This document shows positions 2,899-30,623 of a DNA stretch of 31,027 nucleotides, one piece after another. The stretch's first letter is position 1. Every line of letters begins with the position of its first letter. The notes under the pieces are model-generated. The model worked only from the letters and a program-made list of their open reading frames with translations. It was not told the origin of the DNA and did not search any database. The translations under genes and the position numbers were made by a program. This stretch comes from a virus (lineage: Duplodnaviria > Caudoviricetes). The DNA is taken from the IMG/VR virus record IMGVR_UViG_3300035214_000246, positions 1 through 31,027 of that record; one strand, 5' to 3'.

Positions 2899-3234
2899 AT
2901 GCTGATAAAAGACATAGTAGGAGAAGGCACACCGCAAATATACGGAAAGTATAAGAATCAGCTTAAGAGACGATATAGATGCCAAATGGGTCCAAGGAAA
3001 GGCAGAATAGTAGCCGACCCAGCCACGTGTACAGCACCAATAAACATTGGTAAAAGAATGCAGATGAGAGCTACTCGTGCCAAACGTGCGACAATGATGG
3101 GCAAGTTATCACAGTTTACTAAAAAATATAATCCAACTTCTAAAATTGTTAAAAAGTTAAATAAACAGATTAAAAAGAGAAGAAAACCTACTCAAACGAA
3201 AAATACTTTGGCAAGGACATCAGGGAGAAGTTAA
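2899..3234 (+). CDS. highly basic virion/prohead-core-like protein, paralog 1
   Basis: K/R-rich; YRC..G..KGRIV..P..C.AP motif shared with the next ORF; AAGGA RBS. Confidence 0.6.
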   Translation: MLIKDIVGEGTPQIYGKYKNQLKRRYRCQMGPRKGRIVADPATCTAPINIGKRMQMRATRAKRATMMGKLSQFTKKYNPTSKIVKKLNKQIKKRRKPTQTKNTLARTSGRS

Positions 3235-15113: not shown

Positions 15114-15938
15114 ATGACGCAATTAATTAATCCTAAAAAATTTACAGATGTAACGGGCCGTTTACGGTCCTTTTTTTTGGGTAAAAATTTCCAAGAAGTA
15201 CATACACAAAATCGGTTAAGCATATTAGCCGCTTGTGAAGACCCTCAAACAGTCTCAACCTATAATTACTCAGGTCAAGTCTGGCCATTGCCACAAACAG
15301 GCCAGATGTGGCTCGAATATGAATTGCTTAAGAACCCAGCTGTGCCTGGGTTTTTTTGTATTAGCACTTCCTATAGACAAGAACCACATCCTATAAAAGG
15401 ACGACACGATTTAATATTTCCAATGTTTGAATTTGAGTTCCCTGGAACAGTAGTGGAATTAGAAGCTATGGAAAAAGAGTTACTTGAATACTTAGGTTAT
15501 TGCAATAAAAATACTATAGTTGTTAAAAATTATACTGAATGGGCAGATAGCTTTGGAGTAGAAGAATTAACACATAAACACGAAGAATTAATGTGTAAAA
15601 ATAATCGTGTGTGTATGATTAAAAACTTTCCAAATTATACTAGTCCATTTTGGAATATGAAACAAAATGGTAATAATACAGCATCTAAAATTGATGTAAT
15701 TATTGCAGGACAAGAGACAATAGGGTCAGCTGAAAGATCATCAGATCCGGAACAAATGAAAAAACAATTTCATACAATTAGTGGTGGTTTGTATGCAGAA
15801 TTATTGTTTGGACAATTTGGAAAAGATAGAGTAATTAAAGAATTAGATGACTTTTTGGAACTAGATTTTATACCTAGAGTTGGTGGAGGTATAGGATTAA
15901 CTAGATTAATAAGAGCCGACACAATAATGAATAATTAG
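15114..15938 (+). CDS. class IIb aminoacyl-tRNA synthetase catalytic domain only (Asn-synthetase-like or EpmA-like paralog)
   Basis: motif 2 SYRQE..RHDLIFPMFEFE, ETIGSAER, motif 3 PRVGGGIGLTRL; no N-terminal OB anticodon domain; GGAGG RBS. Confidence 0.8.
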   Translation: MTQLINPKKFTDVTGRLRSFFLGKNFQEVHTQNRLSILAACEDPQTVSTYNYSGQVWPLPQTGQMWLEYELLKNPAVPGFFCISTSYRQEPHPIKGRHDLIFPMFEFEFPGTVVELEAMEKELLEYLGYCNKNTIVVKNYTEWADSFGVEELTHKHEELMCKNNRVCMIKNFPNYTSPFWNMKQNGNNTASKIDVIIAGQETIGSAERSSDPEQMKKQFHTISGGLYAELLFGQFGKDRVIKELDDFLELDFIPRVGGGIGLTRLIRADTIMNN

Positions 15939-15996
15939 TTATTTTTAACTTTTATTCTATAAATCTATTAAGCCATTCCTTTTCTTCTTTTTTTCA

Positions 15997-16024
15997 TTGC
16001 ATTATTATAAATTTAGTGTATAAT
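15997..16024 (+). promoter_or_regulatory. sigma70-type promoter of tmRNA
   Basis: TTGCAT-16 nt-TATAAT. Confidence 0.5.
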
Positions 16025-16029
16025 TATTG

Positions 16030-16276
16030 TTGTAACGTTGAAGTTATCATAATAGGTTATATGGACGTCGGGGCAGTACCGACCACCTCCACCAATATTA
16101 TACAAGTTTCGGGGGTGAACTAGGATCGACAGTAATTTAAAAGGTAATGGAGTTGCCCCGATGTAAGCTGGGTTAACGCGAACACACTTATAAATGCAGA
16201 TGAAAATCTAGCACTTGCGGCCTAATTTATAATTAGGTCCGGGGTTGGCAACTTACCTGGCAACAGAAAAGTTGCA
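16030..16276 (+). ncRNA. ssrA: permuted two-piece tmRNA (acceptor piece ~16030-16094, intervening segment 16095-16110, coding piece 16111-~16276)
   Basis: T-arm gtcgg-ggcagta-ccgac then CACCTCC-A-CCA; GGGGGTG at 16111 completes the acceptor stem with G3.U; tag frame 16196-16225 encodes ADENLALAA*. Confidence 0.93.
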
Positions 16277-16290
16277 CTTTGAAAGGGGAT

Positions 16291-16575
16291 ATGAGTAGTT
16301 TTAAAAAAGTTATAGATTTTTGGAAGCAAAGTTATGTGTCAGATCCGATAGCATTTTGTTTTGAAATGGCGTCAACAATATTTGTTATTATAGGGTCATT
16401 TGTTTTAACTATTACAATTTTAGATTTGAAGCCACATATTTTTATTCCTTTTTATTGGATTGGTAGTGTTGCAGGGTTTATTGGAGCATATCGCAGAACA
16501 TTACCTTGGATAATGGTTTTAACTTTTTGGTTCATTATTTTAAATAGTGTTGCCCTTTGGAGATTATTTTTTTAA
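16291..16575 (+). CDS. small membrane protein (about 3 TM helices)
   Basis: hydrophobic segments; ATG 16291 after AAGGGG is preferred to TTG 16279. Confidence 0.65.
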   Translation: MSSFKKVIDFWKQSYVSDPIAFCFEMASTIFVIIGSFVLTITILDLKPHIFIPFYWIGSVAGFIGAYRRTLPWIMVLTFWFIILNSVALWRLFF

Positions 16576-16583
16576 AGAAATTT

Positions 16584-16988
16584 ATGTCGATAAAAAATAA
16601 AATATCTGTATGGGGTGATAATTTATCATTACTTGAAGGTATAGATAGATTGCAGTATCTAGTAGATTTAGCAGATAAGAGAACTTCTTTATCTAGTGAT
16701 AAAAGAGTTGATGAAAATAAAATTGTTGGTTGCATATCTAAAATTTGGGTTGATATTAGATTAGAAAGTAATAAAGTTGTCGCTGATTACGATTCAGATG
16801 CAATGATAACAAAAGGAATAACAAGTGTAATTTGTGATTGTTTTACAGGTGCTACAAAAGAAGAAGCTGGTTCTGTTGTTGTAGAAGATTTTAAAAACCT
16901 TAATATTAAACAATTATTAACAGTACAGCGTCAAAATGGGTTAGGAAACCTTATCAATACAATTATAAACAAGTCCCAGAAGTTATAG
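16584..16988 (+). CDS. sufE: SufE sulfur acceptor protein
   Basis: RLQYLVDLA, KIVGCISKIW (catalytic Cys), DSDAMITKG, QRQNGL. Confidence 0.88.
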   Translation: MSIKNKISVWGDNLSLLEGIDRLQYLVDLADKRTSLSSDKRVDENKIVGCISKIWVDIRLESNKVVADYDSDAMITKGITSVICDCFTGATKEEAGSVVVEDFKNLNIKQLLTVQRQNGLGNLINTIINKSQKL

Positions 16989-17027
16989 TAGCAGTTAATC
17001 CTCGATTAGCATTAGTTTAAATAAACT

Positions 17028-17522
17028 ATGCAGGCTTTAATTAGAGGTATAACCGCAATCTTCGTAGCATTTTTGTTACTCATTGCAACACCATCTTTAA
17101 GTAGTTACTCTAAAGATAATAGTGCATCGTCTGAGAATTTTATTCTGGATTTTAAAATTAAAGAAAATTTTATTCTAGATTTTAAAATTAATATTTCATA
17201 TGGATTAGGTTGGCGAGTAGATGTACCAGATCCAATCGTAATTGTGCCTGGAAAAGAATATAAAATTAATCTTATGGTAATTAATGATCTGGAGTCAACT
17301 AAATTAGCGAGTGTAATGTGGGGATATTTGCCATCAGGAGTTGCAAAGTATATTACTATAAAAGAATGTTTTTGTTATAATATTAATAAGTTAGATGGTA
17401 AAAGAATATCAGAATTACCAATTATTTTAAGTATTGACCCAGCTATATTAAAAGATAGAAAATTTAAAAAAAATAAAAAAATATTAATCAGATTTAATTT
17501 TTATCCATATATAAAACGTTGA
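17028..17522 (+). CDS. divergent CtaG/Cox11-like copper chaperone
   Basis: N-terminal TM/signal, PG..Y, AKYITIKECFCY (CFC motif), ELPIILSIDP, final FNFY strand. Confidence 0.6.
   Translation: MQALIRGITAIFVAFLLLIATPSLSSYSKDNSASSENFILDFKIKENFILDFKINISYGLGWRVDVPDPIVIVPGKEYKINLMVINDLESTKLASVMWGYLPSGVAKYITIKECFCYNINKLDGKRISELPIILSIDPAILKDRKFKKNKKILIRFNFYPYIKR
17133..17192 (+). repeat. in-frame 30-nt tandem duplication
   Basis: gagaattttattctggattttaaaattaaa / gaaaattttattctagattttaaaattaat (ENFILDFKIK ENFILDFKIN). Confidence 0.9.
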
Positions 17523-17547
17523 CTATTATATAATTATAGCATATAAT
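17519..17547 (+). promoter_or_regulatory. sigma70-type promoter of the RNase P RNA/tRNA-Ser transcript
   Basis: TTGACT-17 nt-TATAAT; predicted start ~17553-17554 matches the start of P1. Confidence 0.75.
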
Positions 17548-17553
17548 AAGTTA

Positions 17554-17715
17554 CAATGAGTGTAATCGGACTATCGCTGGAAACAGAGGAAAGTCAGGAC
17601 ACAGGTGGATATGTGCAAGTCCAAATAGAGTGTTAACAACCACCGGGACACAGGGTAGGACGCAAAGGTAGATGATAGTCTAAAACAGAATCCTGCTTAC
17701 GGATTATATTCGTTG
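17554..17715 (+). ncRNA. rnpB: minimal RNase P RNA, catalytic domain only
   Basis: CR-I GAGGAAAGTC and CR-V ACAGAATCCTGCTTA; helices P1, P2, P3, P4 (bulged U), P5, P6, P15, P16 pair by hand; no P7-P14. Confidence 0.88.
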
Positions 17716-17722
17716 CAAACCC

Positions 17723-17812
17723 GGAAGGGTGGCTGAGCGGTTGAAAGCACTGGTCTTGAAAACCAGCAAAGATGCAAGTCTTTCCAGAGTTCGAATCTCT
17801 GCCCTTCCGCCA
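17723..17812 (+). tRNA. tRNA-Ser(TGA)
   Basis: GGAAGGG/CCCTTCC acceptor stem, anticodon arm ctggt-cttgaaa-accag, long variable arm, GTTCGAATC, G discriminator and encoded CCA. Confidence 0.96.
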
Positions 17813-17833
17813 GTTAATAAGGAAGGAAAAATT

Positions 17834-18073
17834 ATGGATGAAAATGATATAAAATTAAGTGAAACTTATGAAGTCATTTGGAGTGAAGTAGGTAAGTTAA
17901 CAAATAAAGGTACAGAACCACTTATGATTGCTGGAACATTAATGGCTCAAGCTATGAGGTTATATAAAACAGCTTTATCAGAAGATGACTATGGTAGAAT
18001 GATGCAGTCAATTATGGATAGTAAAGATGACGTAAAACCGTATGGACCAAATGATAAGACTATGTTGCACTAA
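17834..18073 (+). CDS. hypothetical protein (79 aa)
   Basis: start moved to ATG 17834 after AAGGAAGGA; the longer call overlaps tRNA-Ser. Confidence 0.7.
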   Translation: MDENDIKLSETYEVIWSEVGKLTNKGTEPLMIAGTLMAQAMRLYKTALSEDDYGRMMQSIMDSKDDVKPYGPNDKTMLH

Positions 18074-18103
18074 AATAAATATATATAAGAATAGGAAATA
18101 ATA

Positions 18104-18469
18104 ATGACATATTACGTAAATCAAAATTGTATTAAATGTAAATTGACAGATTGCGTTGAAGTATGTCCAGTCGACTGTTTTTACGAAGGCGAAAATATGC
18201 TCGCGATTAATCCTGATGAGTGCATAGATTGTGGAGTTTGTGAACCTGAATGTCCAATTGATGCAATTAAACCAGATAGTTTTGAAGAACCAGATAAGGA
18301 AAAATGGATAGAAACTAATAAAAAAGTTTCTTCAGGTGAAGATCGTTGGCCAGTTATAACAAAAATAAAAGAACCTATGTTAGACTCTGACACATATAGA
18401 CCAGAGAATTATGGAAAAGATAAGTCTGAATTCTTTTCAGATAAGCCTGGAACCGGAGATAAGAAGTAA
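18104..18469 (+). CDS. fdxA: FdxA-type dicluster ferredoxin
   Basis: [18 protein letters not shown] and [12 protein letters not shown]. Confidence 0.92.
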
Positions 18470-23129: not shown

Positions 23130-24392
23130 ATGAGCAACAAAGAACTTAAAATGAAATGTTCGTTTTGCGAAAAGACTAGAGCTGAATCTCATAAATTAAT
23201 AGCAGGACCTAAAGGAACATTTATTTGTGATGAATGTGTAAAGCTTTGCCACGATATTTTAAAAGAAGGAACGGCTGAAAATGAGTCAAAAGAATTTGCA
23301 ATCCCTGATCCAAAGAAGTTACACAGTTTTTTAAATAAACATATTATTGGTCAAGATAGAGCAAAGAAAATTGTGAGTGTAGCAGTTTATAATCATTATA
23401 AAAGAATTGTTAATAATTTAATAAAAGAAGATGGGCAAGATGAAATTGAAAAATCAAATGTATTAATTCTTGGGCCATCTGGTGTTGGAAAAACACTTAT
23501 AGCAAAAAAAGTTGCTGAATATGTAAATGTGCCATTTGCTATTGCTGATGCAACTACAATTACTGAATCTGGGTATGTTGGTGATGATGTTGAAAACATT
23601 GTAACTAGATTATTACAACAAGCAGAATTTAATGTTGGAAAAGCTGAACGTGGAATTATATACATTGATGAAATAGATAAGAAAGCTAAAAAAGGTGAAA
23701 ATGTTTCTATAACAAGAGATGTATCTGGAGAAGGTGTTCAACAAGCTTTATTAAAAATTATTGAAGGTACAACTATTAGAGTTCCCCCACAAGGCGGTAG
23801 AAAACATCCTGGTGCAGAAATGATTGAAGTTAATACAGTAAATATATTGTTTATTGTTGGAGGAGCATTTGTTGGAATAGATAAAGTTATTAATAAAAGA
23901 GCTAACAAGTCGTCGGGAATTGGATTTAATCAATCAGTTACTTTAGTTGATACTGAATTTGACGAATGCGAACCAGATGATTTAATTAAGTACGGATTAA
24001 TACCTGAGCTTGTTGGTCGTTTACCAGTAATAGTAGGATGTCATAGTTTAAGTAAAGAAGATTTAAAAGCAATTATGTTAGATGTAAAGAATTCATTAGT
24101 TAAACAATCTCAACGTTTGTTTAAAATGGAAAAGGTAGATCTAATATTAACTGATGACGCAGTTGACTATGTAGTAGATGAAGCATATAAAAAGAAACTT
24201 GGTGCTCGTGGATTAAGAGCTGTATTAGAGAGTGGGTTATTAGAAATACAGTATGAGTTACCAGAGTATAGCGATAGTGGAGTAAAAGAAATAACAGTAA
24301 GTAAAAAAACATTAAAAGGAGAAAAACCAATGCTCACTTATGAAATGAGTGTTGAAAAAAATAAAGATAACGGTACAGATGCAAAAGTATGA
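23130..24392 (+). CDS. clpX: ATP-dependent Clp protease ATP-binding subunit ClpX
   Basis: zinc finger CSFC..CDEC, Walker [13 protein letters not shown] pore loop, [19 protein letters not shown] loop, IGF loop, GARGLR. Confidence 0.97.
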
Positions 24393-24955
24393 AGCAAAGA
24401 TTTAGTATTAACATTAACAAAAATCAATTCAGAAAACAACAAGCATTAATTAATCATAATATTAGATCTAAAGAAGTTAGGTTAATATTAGAATCATCAC
24501 AAGATATTATTAGTACGCAAGAAGCAATAAGTTTAGCTAAACAACAAGAGTCAGATTTAGTATGTGTTAGTACAAAGTCAAATCCACCTATTTGTAAAAT
24601 TATGGATTATGGAAAATATTTGTATGAGCAAAAAAAGAAGCAAAAGTTGGCAGATAAAAAGCAAAGAGAAGCAATTGTTGATTTAAAAGAAATACAGTTT
24701 AGACCAGCAACAGGTATAGGTGATATAAAAGTAAAAACTAAGAAAATACAAGAAATTTTAGATGGTGGAGATAAAGTAAAATTAATAATGAAATTACGTG
24801 GTAGAGAGAATGCTATGAAAGATTTTTGTATGGAAAAGTTTAAAGAATTCCTTACATTTGTGGAAAATTATGACTTTGATTATAGACCTAGCATTCAAGG
24901 TAATAAAATACTTGCAATTTTAAGAAAGAGTGTTATAATAAAGAACAATGACTGA
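24389..24955 (+). CDS. infC: translation initiation factor IF-3
   Basis: [43 protein letters not shown]. Confidence 0.93.
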
Positions 24956-25304
24956 GAAACCTAGAAAAAAGTACGACATTAAACAGTACAGTAATTTTGG
25001 AAAGTTTGATTCAAAGCCTTTTAAAAGAAAAAGACGTGAACCAGATCCACCAGGGTTAGCTGTTGCAGTTGATGGTGAAGACGTAATGAAGGCTTATCGA
25101 AGGCTTAAAAAGAAGATTCTTAAAGATGGACTTATGGATGAAATAAAAGAGAGAAAATATTATAAGAAGCCAAGTGAAAAAAAACAAATAAAATTAAAAG
25201 AACAAAGAAGAAATATGATGAAAGCCCAAAGAGAACGTGCTATGGAATATGGTATAAGATTTAAAAATTATGATCCTAACACAGCAAGAACTCGTGGCTA
25301 TTAA
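24948..25304 (+). CDS. rpsU: ribosomal protein bS21 with N- and C-terminal extensions
   Basis: VAVDGEDVMKAYRRLKKK...G...EIKERKYYKKPSEKK. Confidence 0.88.
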   Translation: MTEKPRKKYDIKQYSNFGKFDSKPFKRKRREPDPPGLAVAVDGEDVMKAYRRLKKKILKDGLMDEIKERKYYKKPSEKKQIKLKEQRRNMMKAQRERAMEYGIRFKNYDPNTARTRGY

Positions 25305-25612
25305 TGTATTTCCAAGATATTAAATTTCAAAAACATCCAACGTTACCAAATGGTGTACAAGCTCTTTTGGATTTTGGAAAGATTCAATTAAGTATTGTTC
25401 GTACCAAATATTCATATGGTGGTGAAAAAGGTTTGTACGAAGCTGGTTTATTAAATGATGAAGGTATGATGCATCTTAAAGGAATTTGGCATCATAAAGA
25501 TACAGTACAAGGATGGTTAACTGAATCTGATGTAGAAGAATTGGTAGATAAAGTTTGTGAAAAAACAAAACAAACACCTAAAATAGTTAAAATAAGATCA
25601 GCATTTAAATAG
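25304..25612 (+). CDS. hypothetical phage protein
   Basis: 102 aa, SYGG..GLYE..L...V.GWLT pattern; TAATG coupling. Confidence 0.7.
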   Translation: MYFQDIKFQKHPTLPNGVQALLDFGKIQLSIVRTKYSYGGEKGLYEAGLLNDEGMMHLKGIWHHKDTVQGWLTESDVEELVDKVCEKTKQTPKIVKIRSAFK

Positions 25613-25662
25613 GAAAATAAAATGGAACCTACTATCGATATTTGTTTAAATACAAACACTAC

Positions 25663-25738
25663 GGGCGATTAGCTCAGTTGGTAGAGCACCTCGTTTACAC
25701 CGAGGGGGTCATAGGTTCGAGCCCTGTATTGCCCACCA
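25663..25738 (+). tRNA. tRNA-Val(TAC)
   Basis: cloverleaf, anticodon arm cctcg-tttacac-cgagg, encoded CCA. Confidence 0.96.
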
Positions 25739-25739
25739 C

Positions 25740-25816
25740 GGGGGTGTAGCTCAGTTGGTTAGAGCGTCCGCCTGTCACGCGGAAGGCCGAGGGTTCGAGT
25801 CCCTTCATCCCCGCCA
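25740..25816 (+). tRNA. tRNA-Asp(GTC)
   Basis: cloverleaf, anticodon arm tccgc-ctgtcac-gcgga, encoded CCA. Confidence 0.96.
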
Positions 25817-25833
25817 TATAGTTAAATAACATT

Positions 25834-27039
25834 ATGCTTACAATAAGAGAACAATTTCCGATATTTAAAAAACTATTGCCAAATGGTAAGAAGTTAGTAT
25901 ATCTTGATAGTGCTAACTCTAGTCAAAAACCTCAAAGGGTAATTGATAGATTATCAAAATTTTATTCTGAAGAATACAGTAGTGTTGGAAGAAGCATACA
26001 TCAATTAAGTACAATAGCTCTGATGTGTTTAGAAAAAAGTAGAGTAGCAGTAGCAAAGTTTTTAAATGCTCAATCTCAAGATGAAATTGTTTTTACTAAG
26101 AGTGCCACTGAAGCAATTAATACAATAGCAGAAAGTTTTGGAAGGACTCAACGTGATCATTATGAAATAATTTGTTCTGAGTTAGAACATAACTCAAATT
26201 ATCTTCCTTGGCATTTACAAAGAGCTCATAAAAATGCTACAATTAAGTTTATTCCTCTTAAAGATGACTATACATTAGATATGGAACAGTTACCTAAATT
26301 AATTACTGAAAAAACTAAAATAATTACAATTACACATTTATCAAATGTTACTGGAGAAGTAGTTGATATTAAAAAGGTTTGTGAAATTGCACATAGCAAA
26401 GGTATACCAGTTTTTGTCGATGGAACTCAAGGTGCACCACATATGAAAGTTGATGTACAAGATTTAGATTGTGATTTTTATTGTATTAGTGGTCATAAAA
26501 TGTATGGCCCATCAGGTGTAGGTGCCTTATATGCCAAAGAAAAATGGATAGAAGAATTATCACCTTATCAAGGAGGTGGTGGTACAGTTCTTGATGTAAC
26601 GAAAAATGTAATACAATATGCGGATGGCCCAAAAAAATGGGAAGCAGGTACACATCCAGTTGCAGAAATTGTAGGACTTAAAGAATCAATAGATTTTTAT
26701 TCTGATACTGGATTTGATAATATGTTAAATCACGAAAAACAATTAATGGAATACTTATATGAGAAGTTAGCACTTGATAATGATGTTAAAATATTATGTG
26801 GAAATAAACCTAAGGCTGTATTGTCATTTAATACAAAAGGAATACATCACGAAGATATGGCAATATTTCTAGATGCATATGGTATAGCTACAAGGCCAGG
26901 CCAGCATTGTGCTATGTTATTTCATAAAAGGTTTGGTTTAACTGGTTCAGTTAGAGTATCTTTAGGTGTATATAATACTAAAGATGAAATGGATTTTTTC
27001 TTAGAAGCATTAAGTGAAATTAAGAAAAGACTGTCCTAA
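25834..27039 (+). CDS. sufS: cysteine desulfurase, SufS type
   Basis: YLDSANSSQKP, SGHKMYGP (PLP lysine), RPGQHCA (catalytic Cys). Confidence 0.93.
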   Translation: MLTIREQFPIFKKLLPNGKKLVYLDSANSSQKPQRVIDRLSKFYSEEYSSVGRSIHQLSTIALMCLEKSRVAVAKFLNAQSQDEIVFTKSATEAINTIAESFGRTQRDHYEIICSELEHNSNYLPWHLQRAHKNATIKFIPLKDDYTLDMEQLPKLITEKTKIITITHLSNVTGEVVDIKKVCEIAHSKGIPVFVDGTQGAPHMKVDVQDLDCDFYCISGHKMYGPSGVGALYAKEKWIEELSPYQGGGGTVLDVTKNVIQYADGPKKWEAGTHPVAEIVGLKESIDFYSDTGFDNMLNHEKQLMEYLYEKLALDNDVKILCGNKPKAVLSFNTKGIHHEDMAIFLDAYGIATRPGQHCAMLFHKRFGLTGSVRVSLGVYNTKDEMDFFLEALSEIKKRLS

Positions 27040-27045
27040 TTACCA

Positions 27046-27074
27046 TTGACTAATACATAAGTATTTTATATAAT
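27046..27074 (+). promoter_or_regulatory. sigma70-type promoter of rplL-sufB
   Basis: TTGACT-17 nt-TATAAT. Confidence 0.7.
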
Positions 27075-27113
27075 AATATTGGCTATAAATTAAATATAAT
27101 AATAAGGAAAATT

Positions 27114-27578
27114 ATGTCGGACGAAGAAGCAAAAAAAGTTGAAGAACCTAAAGTTGAAGAAAAACCAGCTGAAATTAAAGCTGAAGAAACATCTAAAAAA
27201 ATTACAAGAAATTTAGATGCTATAGTTGAAGAGTTAGGACAATTAACAGTAATGGAAGCGGCTGATCTTGCCAAGAAATTAGCTAAAGCTTGGGATCTTG
27301 ATTTAGACGCTCTTACATCTGCTCCAACGGCACAGGCAGGAGCGACTGCTCCAGCTGAAGAAAGTGCAACAGTAACAATAGTTTTAAAAGAATTTAAAGA
27401 AGGTGCTAAAATTAATGTACTTAAAGCTGTTAAAGTAATTTTAGGAATAGGGTTAATGGAATCCAAAAATTTTATCGAGGATTTACCTAAAGAAATAAAC
27501 CAAGAAGTTCCAAGAGATAAAGCTGAAAAAATTAAAAAACAATTAGAAGATGCTGGTGGAACTGTAGAATTCAAATAA
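27114..27578 (+). CDS. rplL: ribosomal protein bL12 (L7/L12) with an E/K-rich N-terminal extension
   Basis: [16 protein letters not shown], Ala-rich hinge, [14 protein letters not shown]..., [16 protein letters not shown]. Confidence 0.9.
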
Positions 27579-29002
27579 TGTTAGATGAGTTACAAGTAGA
27601 TAAAGAATATAAAGAAGGTTTTACTACAGATGTTGAATCTTATACCCTTCCTGCAGGACTTAATGAAGATGTTATTAAAAAAATTTCAAGTTTTAAAAAA
27701 GAACCACAATGGCTTTTAGACTGGAGATTAGAAGCATATAAAATTTGGTTGAATATGAAACAACCTGCTTGGGCAGAACTTAATATTAATCCTATTGATT
27801 ATCAAGCAATATCATATTATTCAGAACCTAAATCTAAATTAAAATCAATGGACGAAGTAGATCCTGAAATTATTAAAACATTTAATAAGTTAGGCATTCC
27901 TTTAAATGAACAAAAAGCATTAGCAGGTGTGGCCGTTGATGCTGTATTTGATAGTGTATCAGTTGCTACTACATATAAGAAAGATTTAGAAAAAAAAGGT
28001 ATATTGTTTTGTAGCTTTGGAGAAGCAGTACAAAAATATCCTGATATAGTTAAAAAATATTTAGGTAGTGTAGTACCAAAAAGTGATAATTATTTTGCTT
28101 GTTTAAATTCAGCAGTATTTACAGATGGTTCATTTGCTTATATTCCAAAAGGAGTTAGATGTCCAATGGAGTTGTCTACATATTTTAGAATTAATGCGGC
28201 CAACACAGGACAATTTGAAAGAACGTTAATTATATGTGAAGATGATGCATACGTATCTTATTTAGAAGGTTGTACTGCACCAATGAGAGATGAAAATCAA
28301 TTACACGCCGCAGTTGTCGAATTAGTAGCAAAAGAAAATTCTCAAATAAAGTATTCAACAATACAAAATTGGTACCCAGGTGATGAAAATGGAAAAGGCG
28401 GCATATACAATTTTGTAACTAAACGAGGAAAATGTCAAGGACGTAAAAGTAAAATATCTTGGACACAATTAGAAACAGGGTCGGCAATTACTTGGAAATA
28501 CCCTTCTTGTGTATTAATGGGAGATGAATCGGTAGGTGAATTTTATTCTGTAGCAGTAACAACTGGAAAGCAACAAGCAGATACTGGTACTAAAATGATT
28601 CATTTAGGAAAGAATACAAAATCAACAATTATATCAAAAGGTATTTCTGCAAAACAAGGAAAACAAACTTATAGAGGTTTAGTATCAATGGGTAGTAATA
28701 CTGAAAAGTCAAAGAATTTTACACAATGTGATTCACTACTTATTGGTAATGAGTGTTCAGCACTTACTATACCTTATATTAAATGTAAAACAAAGTCTTC
28801 TAAATGTGAACACGAAGCTACAACGTCAAAAGTTTCAGATGAACAATTATTTTATTTGAGATCAAGAGGACTTAAAGAAGAAGATGCTGTAAATCTAATT
28901 GTAAATGGATTTGTCAAAGATGTAACTAAACAGTTACCTATGGAATTTGCCGTTGAAGCTAATAAGCTTTTAACAGTAACATTAGAAGGAGCAGTAGGAT
29001 AA
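27578..29002 (+). CDS. sufB: Fe-S cluster scaffold protein SufB
   Basis: [43 protein letters not shown]. Confidence 0.97.
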
Positions 29003-29223
29003 TGATTGATAATTTAGATTTAAGAACTTTACAAAAAGAATCTGCACGGGCATTAATAGTAATGCAAAATGCTGATAATTTATCATTAGCAGAAATTAAT
29101 CATAAAGTAGATCACGATTCAACTATATTTTATAAAAAAGTTTTAGAAAAATACATAGAATTATTTGGAGACTTACCAAGTCATACAGAACAAGGAAAAC
29201 AAGTAAAGTTAATAATGGAGTAA
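29002..29223 (+). CDS. hypothetical protein
   Basis: 73-aa ORF with TAATG coupling. Confidence 0.6.
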   Translation: MIDNLDLRTLQKESARALIVMQNADNLSLAEINHKVDHDSTIFYKKVLEKYIELFGDLPSHTEQGKQVKLIME

Positions 29224-29225
29224 TT

Positions 29226-30623
29226 ATGATAACTCAAATGGAAAAATATCAATATGAAGAAATAATAAAGACTTCTCAAAAAGCACAAAAAGAATGGGCT
29301 AAAGTTCCAGCACCATTAAGAGGAGAATTAATTAGAGTATTTGGAAATGCATTAAGAGAAAATTTACTTTCTTTAGGTAAAGATGTAACTAAAGAGAGTA
29401 AGAAAATATTAGTTGAAGGAATAGGTGAGGTGCAAGAAGTTATTGATATGTGTGATTTTAGTGTTGGTCTTTCAAGACAACTTTATGGACTTACAATGCC
29501 TTCGGAAAGAATAGATCATCGTTTACAAGAAATATGGAATCCATTAGGTGTAATAGGTGTTATTACTGCTTTTAATTTTCCAGTAGCTCCTTGGGGTTGG
29601 AATTTTTGTTTAGCAATAGTTTGTGGTAATAGTGTTATTTGGAAGCCATCACCTAAAACATTAAAGGTTGCTTATAAATGTAAAGAGATATGGAATAAAT
29701 GTTGCCAAAAATTATGTAAGTCAACTGGTTTCGAAATGAACCTTTTAGAAATTATTGATGGTTACAATGAACCTGCTGAATGGATGGCCGATGATCCTAA
29801 TATAAAATTATTAAGTGCTACAGGCTCAACTGCTATGGGTAAAGCATTAGCACCAAGAGTTTCAGCAAGATTAGGAAAAGCTTTATATGAATTAGGCGGC
29901 AACAATGCAATGATTGTATCTAATAAAGCTAATTTAGATTTATCTATAAGAGCTATTGTATTCAGTGCTGTTGGAACGTGTGGGCAAAGATGTACAACAT
30001 TACGAAGATTAATTGTACACGAAGATATATATGATGAATTATTAGAAAAATTAAAAAAGTCTTATATAAGTTTGCCAGTTGGTAATCCAATTAAAAGAGA
30101 AAATTTAGTAGGTCCATTAATTAATAAAGAAGCATTAGATAAAATGCAAAATGTTTTAGCACAATGTAAAGAAAAAGGATATAAAATTTATGGTGGAGCA
30201 CCATTAACTGAATTAGGTGATTCATATGTAAGACCTGCTATTGTAGAAGTTAATGCACAATGTGAGTTAGTAAAACAAGAAACATTTGCACCTATATTAT
30301 ATGTAATGAAATATAGTTCGTTAGATGATGCAATTGAAATTCATAATGACGTTGAACAAGGATTAAGTTCGTGTATTTTTACTGATAATTTACAAGAAGC
30401 AGAAAGGTTTATTTCTGCACAAGGATCTGATTGTGGAATTGTAAATGTTAATATTGGACCATCTGGTGCAGAAATTGGTGGAGCATTTGGTGGAGAAAAA
30501 GATACAGGTGGCGGAAGAGAATCAGGATCTGATGCTTGGAAACAATATATGAAACGTTCAACAGTTACAATTAATTATGGAAAGACATTACCTTTAGCTC
30601 AAGGAATAACCTTTGATGCCTAA
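29226..30623 (+). CDS. aldehyde dehydrogenase, ALDH7 (alpha-aminoadipate semialdehyde/P6C dehydrogenase-like)
   Basis: ITAFNFPVA, SATGST, ELGGNNA, GQRCTT, ETFAPILY, GRESGSDAWKQYM. Confidence 0.9.
   Translation: MITQMEKYQYEEIIKTSQKAQKEWAKVPAPLRGELIRVFGNALRENLLSLGKDVTKESKKILVEGIGEVQEVIDMCDFSVGLSRQLYGLTMPSERIDHRLQEIWNPLGVIGVITAFNFPVAPWGWNFCLAIVCGNSVIWKPSPKTLKVAYKCKEIWNKCCQKLCKSTGFEMNLLEIIDGYNEPAEWMADDPNIKLLSATGSTAMGKALAPRVSARLGKALYELGGNNAMIVSNKANLDLSIRAIVFSAVGTCGQRCTTLRRLIVHEDIYDELLEKLKKSYISLPVGNPIKRENLVGPLINKEALDKMQNVLAQCKEKGYKIYGGAPLTELGDSYVRPAIVEVNAQCELVKQETFAPILYVMKYSSLDDAIEIHNDVEQGLSSCIFTDNLQEAERFISAQGSDCGIVNVNIGPSGAEIGGAFGGEKDTGGGRESGSDAWKQYMKRSTVTINYGKTLPLAQGITFDA

Follow-up and report, generated by a model that had tools for sequence, protein, structure and literature searches.

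The window analyzed here is a whole 31-kb virus record (31,027 nucleotides) that is estimated to be 12% complete, and the sequencing runs containing this stretch are marine, seawater or vent metagenomes. Its recognizable genes encode virion proteins, NrdAB, a PAAR protein, IF3, S21, L12, ClpX, SufB, a SufS-like aminotransferase, SufE, a CtaG-like protein and a ferredoxin; most of its phage proteins belong to no known family. A dense block of host-like genes, one of them for an aldehyde dehydrogenase, occupies 16557–17522, 18104–18469 and 23130–30623, and a short class II tRNA-synthetase-like gene lies at 15114–15938. The CtaG-like ORF contains, at about 17134–17193, a 30-nt tandem duplication that encodes ENFILDFKI twice. 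At 17554–17715 lies an RNA gene matching bacterial RNase P RNA, preceded by a putative promoter and followed by a tRNA gene. Its G+C content is 44%, versus 25% upstream and 32% downstream. The features of the locus, together with the other RNA genes of the window, are:

15981–16316 (+): alpha-type permuted tmRNA, a candidate substrate (RF01849, 131.5 bits; ARAGORN tag ADENLALAA)
17519–17547 (+): putative sigma-70-type promoter, TTGACT–17 nt–TATAAT, with 11 of 12 consensus letters and a predicted start near 17554
17554–17715 (+): gene for an RNase P RNA reduced to its catalytic domain, 162 nt including both strands of P1, identified by its RF00010 match, helix counts and covariation
17554–17568 (+): 5' strand of P1, pairing with 17702–17715, plus the pair G17568–C17700; two-sided changes in five of eight inner pairs
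17569–17575 (+): 5' strand of P2, pairing with 17674–17680; two-sided changes in four of six core pairs
17577–17586 (+): miniature P3 hairpin (17577–17579 with 17584–17586, GAAA loop); some relatives have a longer P3
17586–17599 (+): CR I and the 5' strand of P4 with bulged U17594; invariant in 27 of 27 versions, partly as set by the search pattern, and fitting the RF00010 consensus
17600–17615 (+): P5 and its 8-nt closing loop, which consists of the P6 5' strand GGTGG and the ATA that replaces the whole specificity domain
17616–17661 (+): J5/15, P15, J15/16, P16 and GGU (17654–17656), with the P6 3' strand (17640–17644) inside the P16 loop
17662–17673 (+): direct junction from P15 to P2, CR IV-like AGGTAGATG continuing into P2, without P18
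17685–17699 (+): CR V and the 3' strand of P4, P19 absent; from the model alignment and the family alignment
17716–17722 (+): 7-nt spacer, serving as RNA 3' tail and tRNA 5' leader, with C at –1
17723–17812 (+): tRNA-Ser(UGA) with encoded CCA (ARAGORN, Rfam), likely co-transcribed with the RNA
25663–25816 (+): genes for tRNA-Val and tRNA-Asp separated by a single base, each encoding its CCA; both tRNAs are candidate substrates

A complete type A catalytic domain is present in the RNA

Counted in the sequence, P1 forms 14 of 14 pairs (17554–17567 with 17702–17715), P4 eight of eight with U17594 bulged (17591–17599 with 17691–17698), P5 four of four (17600–17603 with 17612–17615) and P6 five of five (17604–17608 with 17640–17644), while P15 joins 17619–17622 to 17658–17661 and P16 joins 17630–17634 to 17647–17651. 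A first-pass annotation of this DNA had listed P1, P3, P4, P5, P6, P15, P16 and the GGU of L15, all of which we found in the sequence. Its P2 of 8 bp (17568–17575 with 17674–17681) needs correcting: G17568 pairs with C17700 in 27 of 27 versions of the RNA (the alternative G17568–U17681 is available in 21 of 27) and closes P1, so that P2 has 7 bp in the window and 6 bp across the family. The annotation had also placed about 3 nt where P7–P14 would be and reported P18 and P19 as absent; the site indeed holds ATA alone (17609–17611), and P17 is absent too.

When the RNA was compared with the class A RNase P model (RF00010, RNaseP_bact_a), a check that the annotation had called for, positions 17558–17715 aligned with it end to end with a score of 73.1 bits (E = 1.4e-20), short of the 100-bit gathering threshold. 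In this alignment, the 155 model positions of the specificity domain (S-domain) are met by 5 nt and the 24 positions of P18 by 0 nt. Relatives of the RNA score 63–78 bits, and because these scores lie under the Rfam cut-off, standard annotation skips such RNAs. The archaeal RNase P model gave 57.7 bits on the window. A search of the window with RF00011 (type B) returned no candidate, P6 and P16 being present instead of P5.1 and P15.1, and a first look with RF02357 (type T) returned none either, hence nothing was scored. We also looked in the window for a residual type T-like S-domain stem with a T-loop and found only the ATA. The context differs from an archaeal one in that the window belongs to a virus whose relatives have a T4-like capsid, and in that its translation genes are bacterial and its promoter is of sigma-70 type; Pop5, Rpp30, Rpp29 and L7Ae were all without a match in the Pfam scan of the window.

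The type A features that are present include CR I and CR V, which form P4 with its bulged U and are invariant in 27 of 27 versions, and helices P1, P2, P3, P5, P15 and P16, each with 93.5–100% of cells paired and at least one two-sided change. The GGGTA around the L15 GGU is likewise invariant in 27 of 27; in E. coli, this GGU pairs with the RCCA of the substrate. Missing are P7–P14 with CR II and CR III, and P17, P18 and P19. Judged by these sequence features, the phage RNA is a descendant of bacterial type A RNase P RNA and would work like it.

Folding the window RNA gave a z-score of –3.85, and none of 200 shuffles was equally stable. Its minimum-energy fold contains P1–P3 only, and the pseudoknots were not recovered. 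Taken alone, P6 of the window is weak, as at least five Watson–Crick pairs arose in 637 of 20,000 shuffles; the case for P6 is made by the family, not by the window sequence alone.

The same deletion is found in a family of covarying RNAs

Exact pattern scans returned 4, 7, 15 and 9 viral loci (an earlier scan had returned 2), 61 metagenome loci and 9 genome loci. The core motif pair occurs in 107 sequences, 51 of which are of the window's class, with a core of 111–117 nt; these comprise the window, 15 fetches of six viral contigs and 35 of the 61 metagenome matches, one of which repeats a viral contig. The first-pass annotation had named an absence of homologs with the same deletion as grounds for abandoning its reading; 40 records other than the window have it. 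After one truncated locus was excluded, 27 distinct 180-nt stretches were aligned, with a mean column identity of 74%. Standard pairs form in 95.5% of the 1159 helix cells of these 27 versions, compared with 85.7% in shuffles (0 of 500 as high, a count that is not a probability since the versions are related) and 27–38% in controls with slid partners. Changes on both sides are seen in 18 of the 43 pairs. Run on the alignment, RNAalifold recovered P1, P2, P3, P5 and P16, and not P15 or the pseudoknots.

The annotation had looked to P4 and P6 for covariation, which P6 displays within the class and P4 only in a wider phage set. Examined sequence by sequence, a P6 of 5–6 bp is possible in 27 of 27 versions and takes seven sequence forms, including GGTGG/CCACC, GGTAG/CTACC, GGCAG/CTGCC and GTTGAG/CTCAAC. 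For one version, L040, the script chose another helix for P6, yet GGTGG and CCACC both exist there, and the 76% pairing of P6 on the MAFFT alignment is low because one subgroup is off by a column. P4 is invariant in the window's class, which is conservation and not covariation. In the wider set, the P4 position that the search pattern leaves free is paired, as A-U, G-C or C-G, in all 29 of the RNase P-like loci picked by hand, and in 1 of 11 loci judged to be chance matches, the sorting having been done by eye.

The deletion is also intact at the level of assembly. In sequencing run X12, a 649-nt DNA contig bridges 17404–18052 with one mismatch and no gap, which disposes of the misassembly that the annotation had named as a way in which the S-domain might have been lost, and metagenome locus L097 is identical to the window across 180 nt. 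We conclude that this is a natural, conserved phage RNase P RNA in which the catalytic domain is complete and the specificity domain absent, in line with the annotation's proposal of a natural catalytic-core-only RNA under selection. Its term 'ultra-minimal' should be taken with some reserve, since some relatives are about 153–159 nt (lengths that leave out the Ala- and Asp-type versions, where automatic P1 calls are unreliable) and a degenerate fungal mitochondrial RNA is reported at about 150 nt (PMC3790967). Across this class, the P7–P14 site holds 0–3 spare bases.

Two variations within the family were noted in passing. Loci of the tRNA-Gln type (for example L010) and L040 have CGAG versus CAAG, the G being presumably the base equivalent to E. 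coli A248, and their P5 loop can be wholly taken by P6. At L051 (1247–1426), P3 has an 8-nt insertion relative to otherwise near-identical versions.

The window's class lies at the short end of a size range

A second phage-like set has cores of 142–181 nt with a specificity-domain stub, and many of its members lie in tRNA clusters. As the stub-bearing cores are longer, the window's class forms the short end of a size range. Loci of intermediate size are L011, L014–L028, L047, L066, L078, L083, L086 and L101, the last in G002, which is unpublished.

An exact pattern covering short spacings alone gave nine matches in 185,579 species genomes, none of the window's class. Three lie inside full-size rnpB genes (L100, L104, L106), two are without an RNase P match (L103, L107), two have internal deletions with P15 lost (L099, L102) and two are second copies alongside a full-size gene (L101, L105; for L101 this point rests on the unpublished G002). 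The L105 copy (2985–3161) comes from G001, an Elusimicrobia MAG in which a full-size rnpB is present too. This copy is a 177-nt RNase P-like RNA in a tRNA cluster; its specificity domain is missing, its P15 region is reduced, and P18 is present. The rnpB genes of L099 (2960–3116, G003) and L102 (2985–3181, G004) are each the genome's only RF00010 match and keep P7–P9 while P15–P18 are gone; G003 is a single contig titled complete. Our guess is that these two deletions reflect assembly collapse.

The RNA gene is preceded by a promoter motif and followed by a tRNA gene

The promoter motif ends 6 nt 5' of P1. In this AT-rich region, sites of this kind occur no more often than expected by chance (4 found versus 4.5 expected). 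Across the family, a –35/17 nt/–10 site of sigma-70 type lies 36–47 nt 5' of the P4 motif in 27 of 27 versions, with a spacer whose sequence varies, which favors the promoter of its own that had been claimed for the RNA. The first-pass annotation had missed the tRNA gene that begins 7 nt after P1. In 26 of the 27 versions, a tRNA gene begins 10–23 nt 3' of the P4 motif; it is of Gln type in 11, Ser in 7, Ala in 6 and Asp in 2, and L040 is the sole version without an adjacent tRNA. The surrounding genes change, with at least five gene neighborhoods and no neighboring ORF cluster common to more than 10 of 28 loci. Neighbors of note are an ORF about 740–520 nt upstream of the RNA in L054 and one about 350–1610 nt downstream in L010, which we take by eye to resemble ribosomal protein L33 and cytochrome b, respectively.

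No terminator-like site was found in 17300–18200. On this arrangement, a transcript starting at the RNA's own promoter likely includes the tRNA-Ser as well. Metatranscriptome X24 contains a 254-nt contig whose start lies two letters ahead of 17558 and which extends into the tRNA. It has two differences from L009, its closest relative, and among 24 compared records it alone is at least 95% alike to L009; its last 44 letters match another tRNA-Ser. It reads GGCAG on the P6 5' strand, unaccompanied by any listed change on the 3' strand, and P6 would be disrupted if this were real; the contig may be a mosaic of two strains (the two sites are about 35 nt apart, and the 3' end switches tRNA-Ser). 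Coming from one study, and with contigs unable to show RNA ends, it is a weak hint of transcription and co-transcription. In RNA run X23 no contig closely covers the RNA, and a gap in contigs is not evidence of absence.

Relatives are large phages that encode tRNAs and tmRNA

Among the relatives with the same RNA are G005, rated complete at 328 kb, and the 243-kb G006; each has a T4-like Gp23 capsid gene. The complete G005 carries one RNase P RNA, a tmRNA and 15 tRNA genes, all 15 with encoded CCA. The tmRNA was also found in G006 and G007, and not in the short fragments G008 and G009. One-base tRNA tandems like the Val-Asp pair of the window recur in G005 as Ile-Val-Asp and Arg-Gln (276800–277028 and 100065–100213); with tRNAs one base apart, one 5' cut would separate both and nearly complete the upstream 3' end. 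The terminal repeat of G005 (1–73 and 328075–328147) is the tRNA-Ala directly 3' of the RNase P RNA; given that identity, the repeat may be a circular-assembly overlap and not a true genome end.

RnpA (PF00825) had no match in G005, G006 or G007, and the HARP family had none above the cut-off in G005. The protein partner of the RNA would therefore most simply be the RnpA of the host. A separate S-domain motif was found nowhere else in G005, G006 and G007, with G001 and G002 as positive controls; in the window, the motif search gave seven matches at up to two mismatches, each of them inside a coding region, versus 3.7 expected.

The T-loop is ordinary in 27 of 27 phage tRNAs, and nothing in their sequences points to retargeting of the RNA away from tRNA. 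A U at –1 is found in 11 of 15 tRNAs of G005, 4 of 9 of G006 and 0 of 3 of the window, a pattern that cannot separate a host from a phage enzyme. All three window tRNAs have C at –1, and the adjacent tRNA-Ser combines C-1 with G73.

The alpha-type permuted tmRNA, our sole basis for naming a host, suggests an alphaproteobacterium. Protein searches with IF3 and SufB returned mostly environmental proteins with mixed MAG labels and did not settle the host, and NrdA is nearest to cyanophage genes (71–74%), which names none. Against 50,697 GenBank phage records, blastn of the RNA alone gave eight short, chance-level matches, hence no cultured carrier at that sensitivity; matches obtained with the tRNA included proved to be tRNA-Ser and not RNase P RNA.

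Known RNase P RNAs offer partial parallels

The phage RNA resembles type A RNA (RF00010; E. coli M1, rnpB) in CR I, the CR IV-like stretch and CR V, in P1–P6, P15 and P16, in the bulged U of P4 and in the L15 GGU. It differs in being 162 nt long, versus a reported 340–420 nt (PMC4919922), in being phage-encoded with a tRNA directly 3', and in having no P7–P14, CR II, CR III or P17–P19. Its part list is close to that of the construct Eco CP RPR delP18 P3Mini as described in PMC5839562, which has no S-domain and no P18, a short P3 and a retained P6 and is reported to cut model substrates at the right position whether or not protein is added; that RNA, however, is a laboratory construct assayed on hairpin substrates, whereas the phage RNA is natural, conserved and also without P17.

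Among natural RNAs, the archaeal type T form comes closest. It too is without P18 and most of the S-domain and still has a P6 in models, but according to PMC13462272 it retains an S-domain stem with one T-loop modeled onto the tRNA elbow and works with four archaeal proteins; the phage RNA instead has 0–3 spare bases at that site and a bacterial promoter. Among the fungal mitochondrial RNAs covered in PMC3790967, that of S. fibuligera has the length of about 150 nt given above and S. cerevisiae RPM1 lies between two tRNA genes, but these RNAs are described as AU-rich, reduced mainly to P1 and P4 and inactive without protein, while the catalytic domain of the phage RNA is complete and covarying. 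CPR RNAs also fall below Rfam cut-offs and are reported to be without helices such as P12–P14 and P18, but they are cellular and lose single helices, not the whole S-domain (PMC8172020). Theta ribozymes share with the phage RNA its occurrence in phages beside tRNA genes and have been proposed to make tRNA maturation less host-dependent (10.1101/2023.06.13.544163); as HDV-like self-cleavers at tRNA 3' ends, they are unrelated to it in fold and chemistry.

Discussion

We favor, at somewhat better than even odds, a reading in which the phage RNA is a slow, elbow-blind RNase P that works with host RnpA and removes 5' leaders from phage pre-tRNAs. What the phage gene encodes is the catalytic half of a type A RNase P RNA, stripped of its specificity domain; the gene would be transcribed from its own promoter jointly with the tRNA-Ser behind it, and the RNA would recruit host RnpA as its protein partner. 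Besides pre-tRNAs, the pre-tmRNA is a possible substrate. Because the specificity domain is absent, the tRNA elbow would be unreadable, leaving substrates to be placed by the acceptor stem, the GGU-RCCA pairing and the contact between protein and leader. P6 would brace P15/P16 against P5, and the absence of P8, on which P18 docks, may explain why P18 was lost. Cleavage where the adjacent tRNA begins, probably by another copy of the enzyme acting in trans, would at the same time give the RNA its 3' end. What the phage likely gains is added capacity for tRNA processing, under its own control, when host rnpB output drops.

Activity is suggested by E. coli, whose isolated catalytic domain (C-domain) is reported to cleave at the correct site with and without protein, to need a P6-mimic and to tolerate loss of P18 and a short P3 (PMC5839562). 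The phage RNA has exactly that set of C-domain parts, with a compensatory P6, from which we infer an active ribozyme. The same source puts the rates of engineered C-domains some 100- to 500-fold below that of full-size E. coli RNA, with P18 deletion costing a further 3- to 4-fold in the presence of protein. With such slowness the gain over host RNase P may be small, and this counts against the active-enzyme reading. So does the C-1/G73 of the attached tRNA-Ser, as C-domains are reported to cut such substrates more slowly and partly at the wrong site (PMC5839562). With normal T-loops on the phage tRNAs, moreover, the host enzyme should cope, which speaks against a need for a phage RNase P, as does the fact that cultured phages manage without such an RNA, as far as blastn sees. 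A further point against activity is that the RNase P-like RNA of camelpox is reported to be inactive (PMC3001073).

The RNA might instead be active but retargeted, with the loss of its elbow reader allowing it to cut RNAs that the host enzyme handles poorly, such as permuted pre-tmRNA, one-base tRNA tandems or, during takeover of the cell, host RNAs with a hairpin and RCCA. The permuted tmRNA of G005, G006, G007 and the window and the one-base spacers of the window and G005 would supply such substrates; many non-tRNA substrates of RNase P are reported, pre-4.5S RNA among them, which needs no intact S-domain (PMC11143913). However, the RNA precedes ordinary tRNA genes in 26 of 27 versions and contains no guide and no extra domain. 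A tmRNA of the permuted type would, in addition, already be processed by host RNase P, and on balance we regard retargeting as unlikely. The RnpA-binding surface lies in the catalytic domain around P2–P4, a region that the phage RNA keeps in full. Together with the conserved strong promoter motif, this would suit a decoy with little catalysis of its own, its core kept to sequester host RnpA and slow host tRNA maturation. That role has been proposed for the camelpox RNA (PMC3001073). P15, P16, P6 and the RCCA-binding GGU, however, serve the substrate and not the protein, yet are kept with compensatory changes, and the phage itself needs RNase P for its tRNAs (15 in G005), so a decoy strikes us as improbable, with a chance lower than that of retargeting.

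Could an unrecognized phage protein or a second RNA stand in for the specificity domain or for RnpA? Most phage proteins here belong to no known family, and the reduced RNAs of type T archaea and fungal mitochondria are described as relying on proteins (PMC13462272, PMC3790967). No neighboring ORF cluster accompanies the RNA in more than 10 of 28 loci, however, and RnpA, HARP and the S-domain motif all went without a match in the complete G005, which makes such a helper very unlikely. The proximity of the tRNA gene in 26 of 27 versions also invites a cis-acting module that cuts only the tRNA on its own 3' end, where tethering would offset weak binding and theta ribozymes at tRNA 3' ends offer a phage precedent (10.1101/2023.06.13.544163). 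The tether, though, measures about 4–7 nt where the P1 call is reliable and sits behind the P1 helix, L040 has no adjacent tRNA, and a whole gene for one exchangeable tRNA would be costly. The P1 helix also points away from the active site, and we give a cis-acting module only a slight chance. Slighter still, to the point of being nearly negligible, is the chance that the locus is a misassembly or a decaying remnant of a captured host rnpB. The score under the Rfam cut-off and the collapsed-looking short rnpB copies of L099 and L102 lend it some color, but those copies show the opposite pattern, with P7–P9 kept and P15 lost, the X12 contig and L097 carry the deletion unaltered, and 40 other records have it with compensatory changes.

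A literature search for a phage-encoded or S-domain-less RNase P RNA, with subscription journals and supplements (including bioRxiv) outside its scope, found no description. The main text of a huge-phage survey does not contain the term RNase P (PMC7162821), and in the accessible part of PMC12636597 host RNase P is used as a tool only. Even the reduced archaeal type T RNA is modeled as retaining a stub that touches the tRNA elbow (PMC13462272). The larger picture seems to us moderately probable, namely that marine jumbo phages would harbor the first natural S-domain-less RNase P with a complete core, one that hijacks RnpA, disregards the tRNA elbow and so has a substrate range of its own, releases itself from a tRNA precursor and stands at the far end of a graded S-domain loss across phage RNase P RNAs.

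Only two ribozymes are universal, RNase P among them, and its division into two domains has been treated as a rule. A natural S-domain-less RNA makes an old question testable, namely whether the catalytic domain alone can serve as a working cellular enzyme and what the specificity domain contributes, and its length of 162 nt keeps assays and structural work inexpensive. With this RNA, moreover, RNase P would join the translation machinery carried by large phages.
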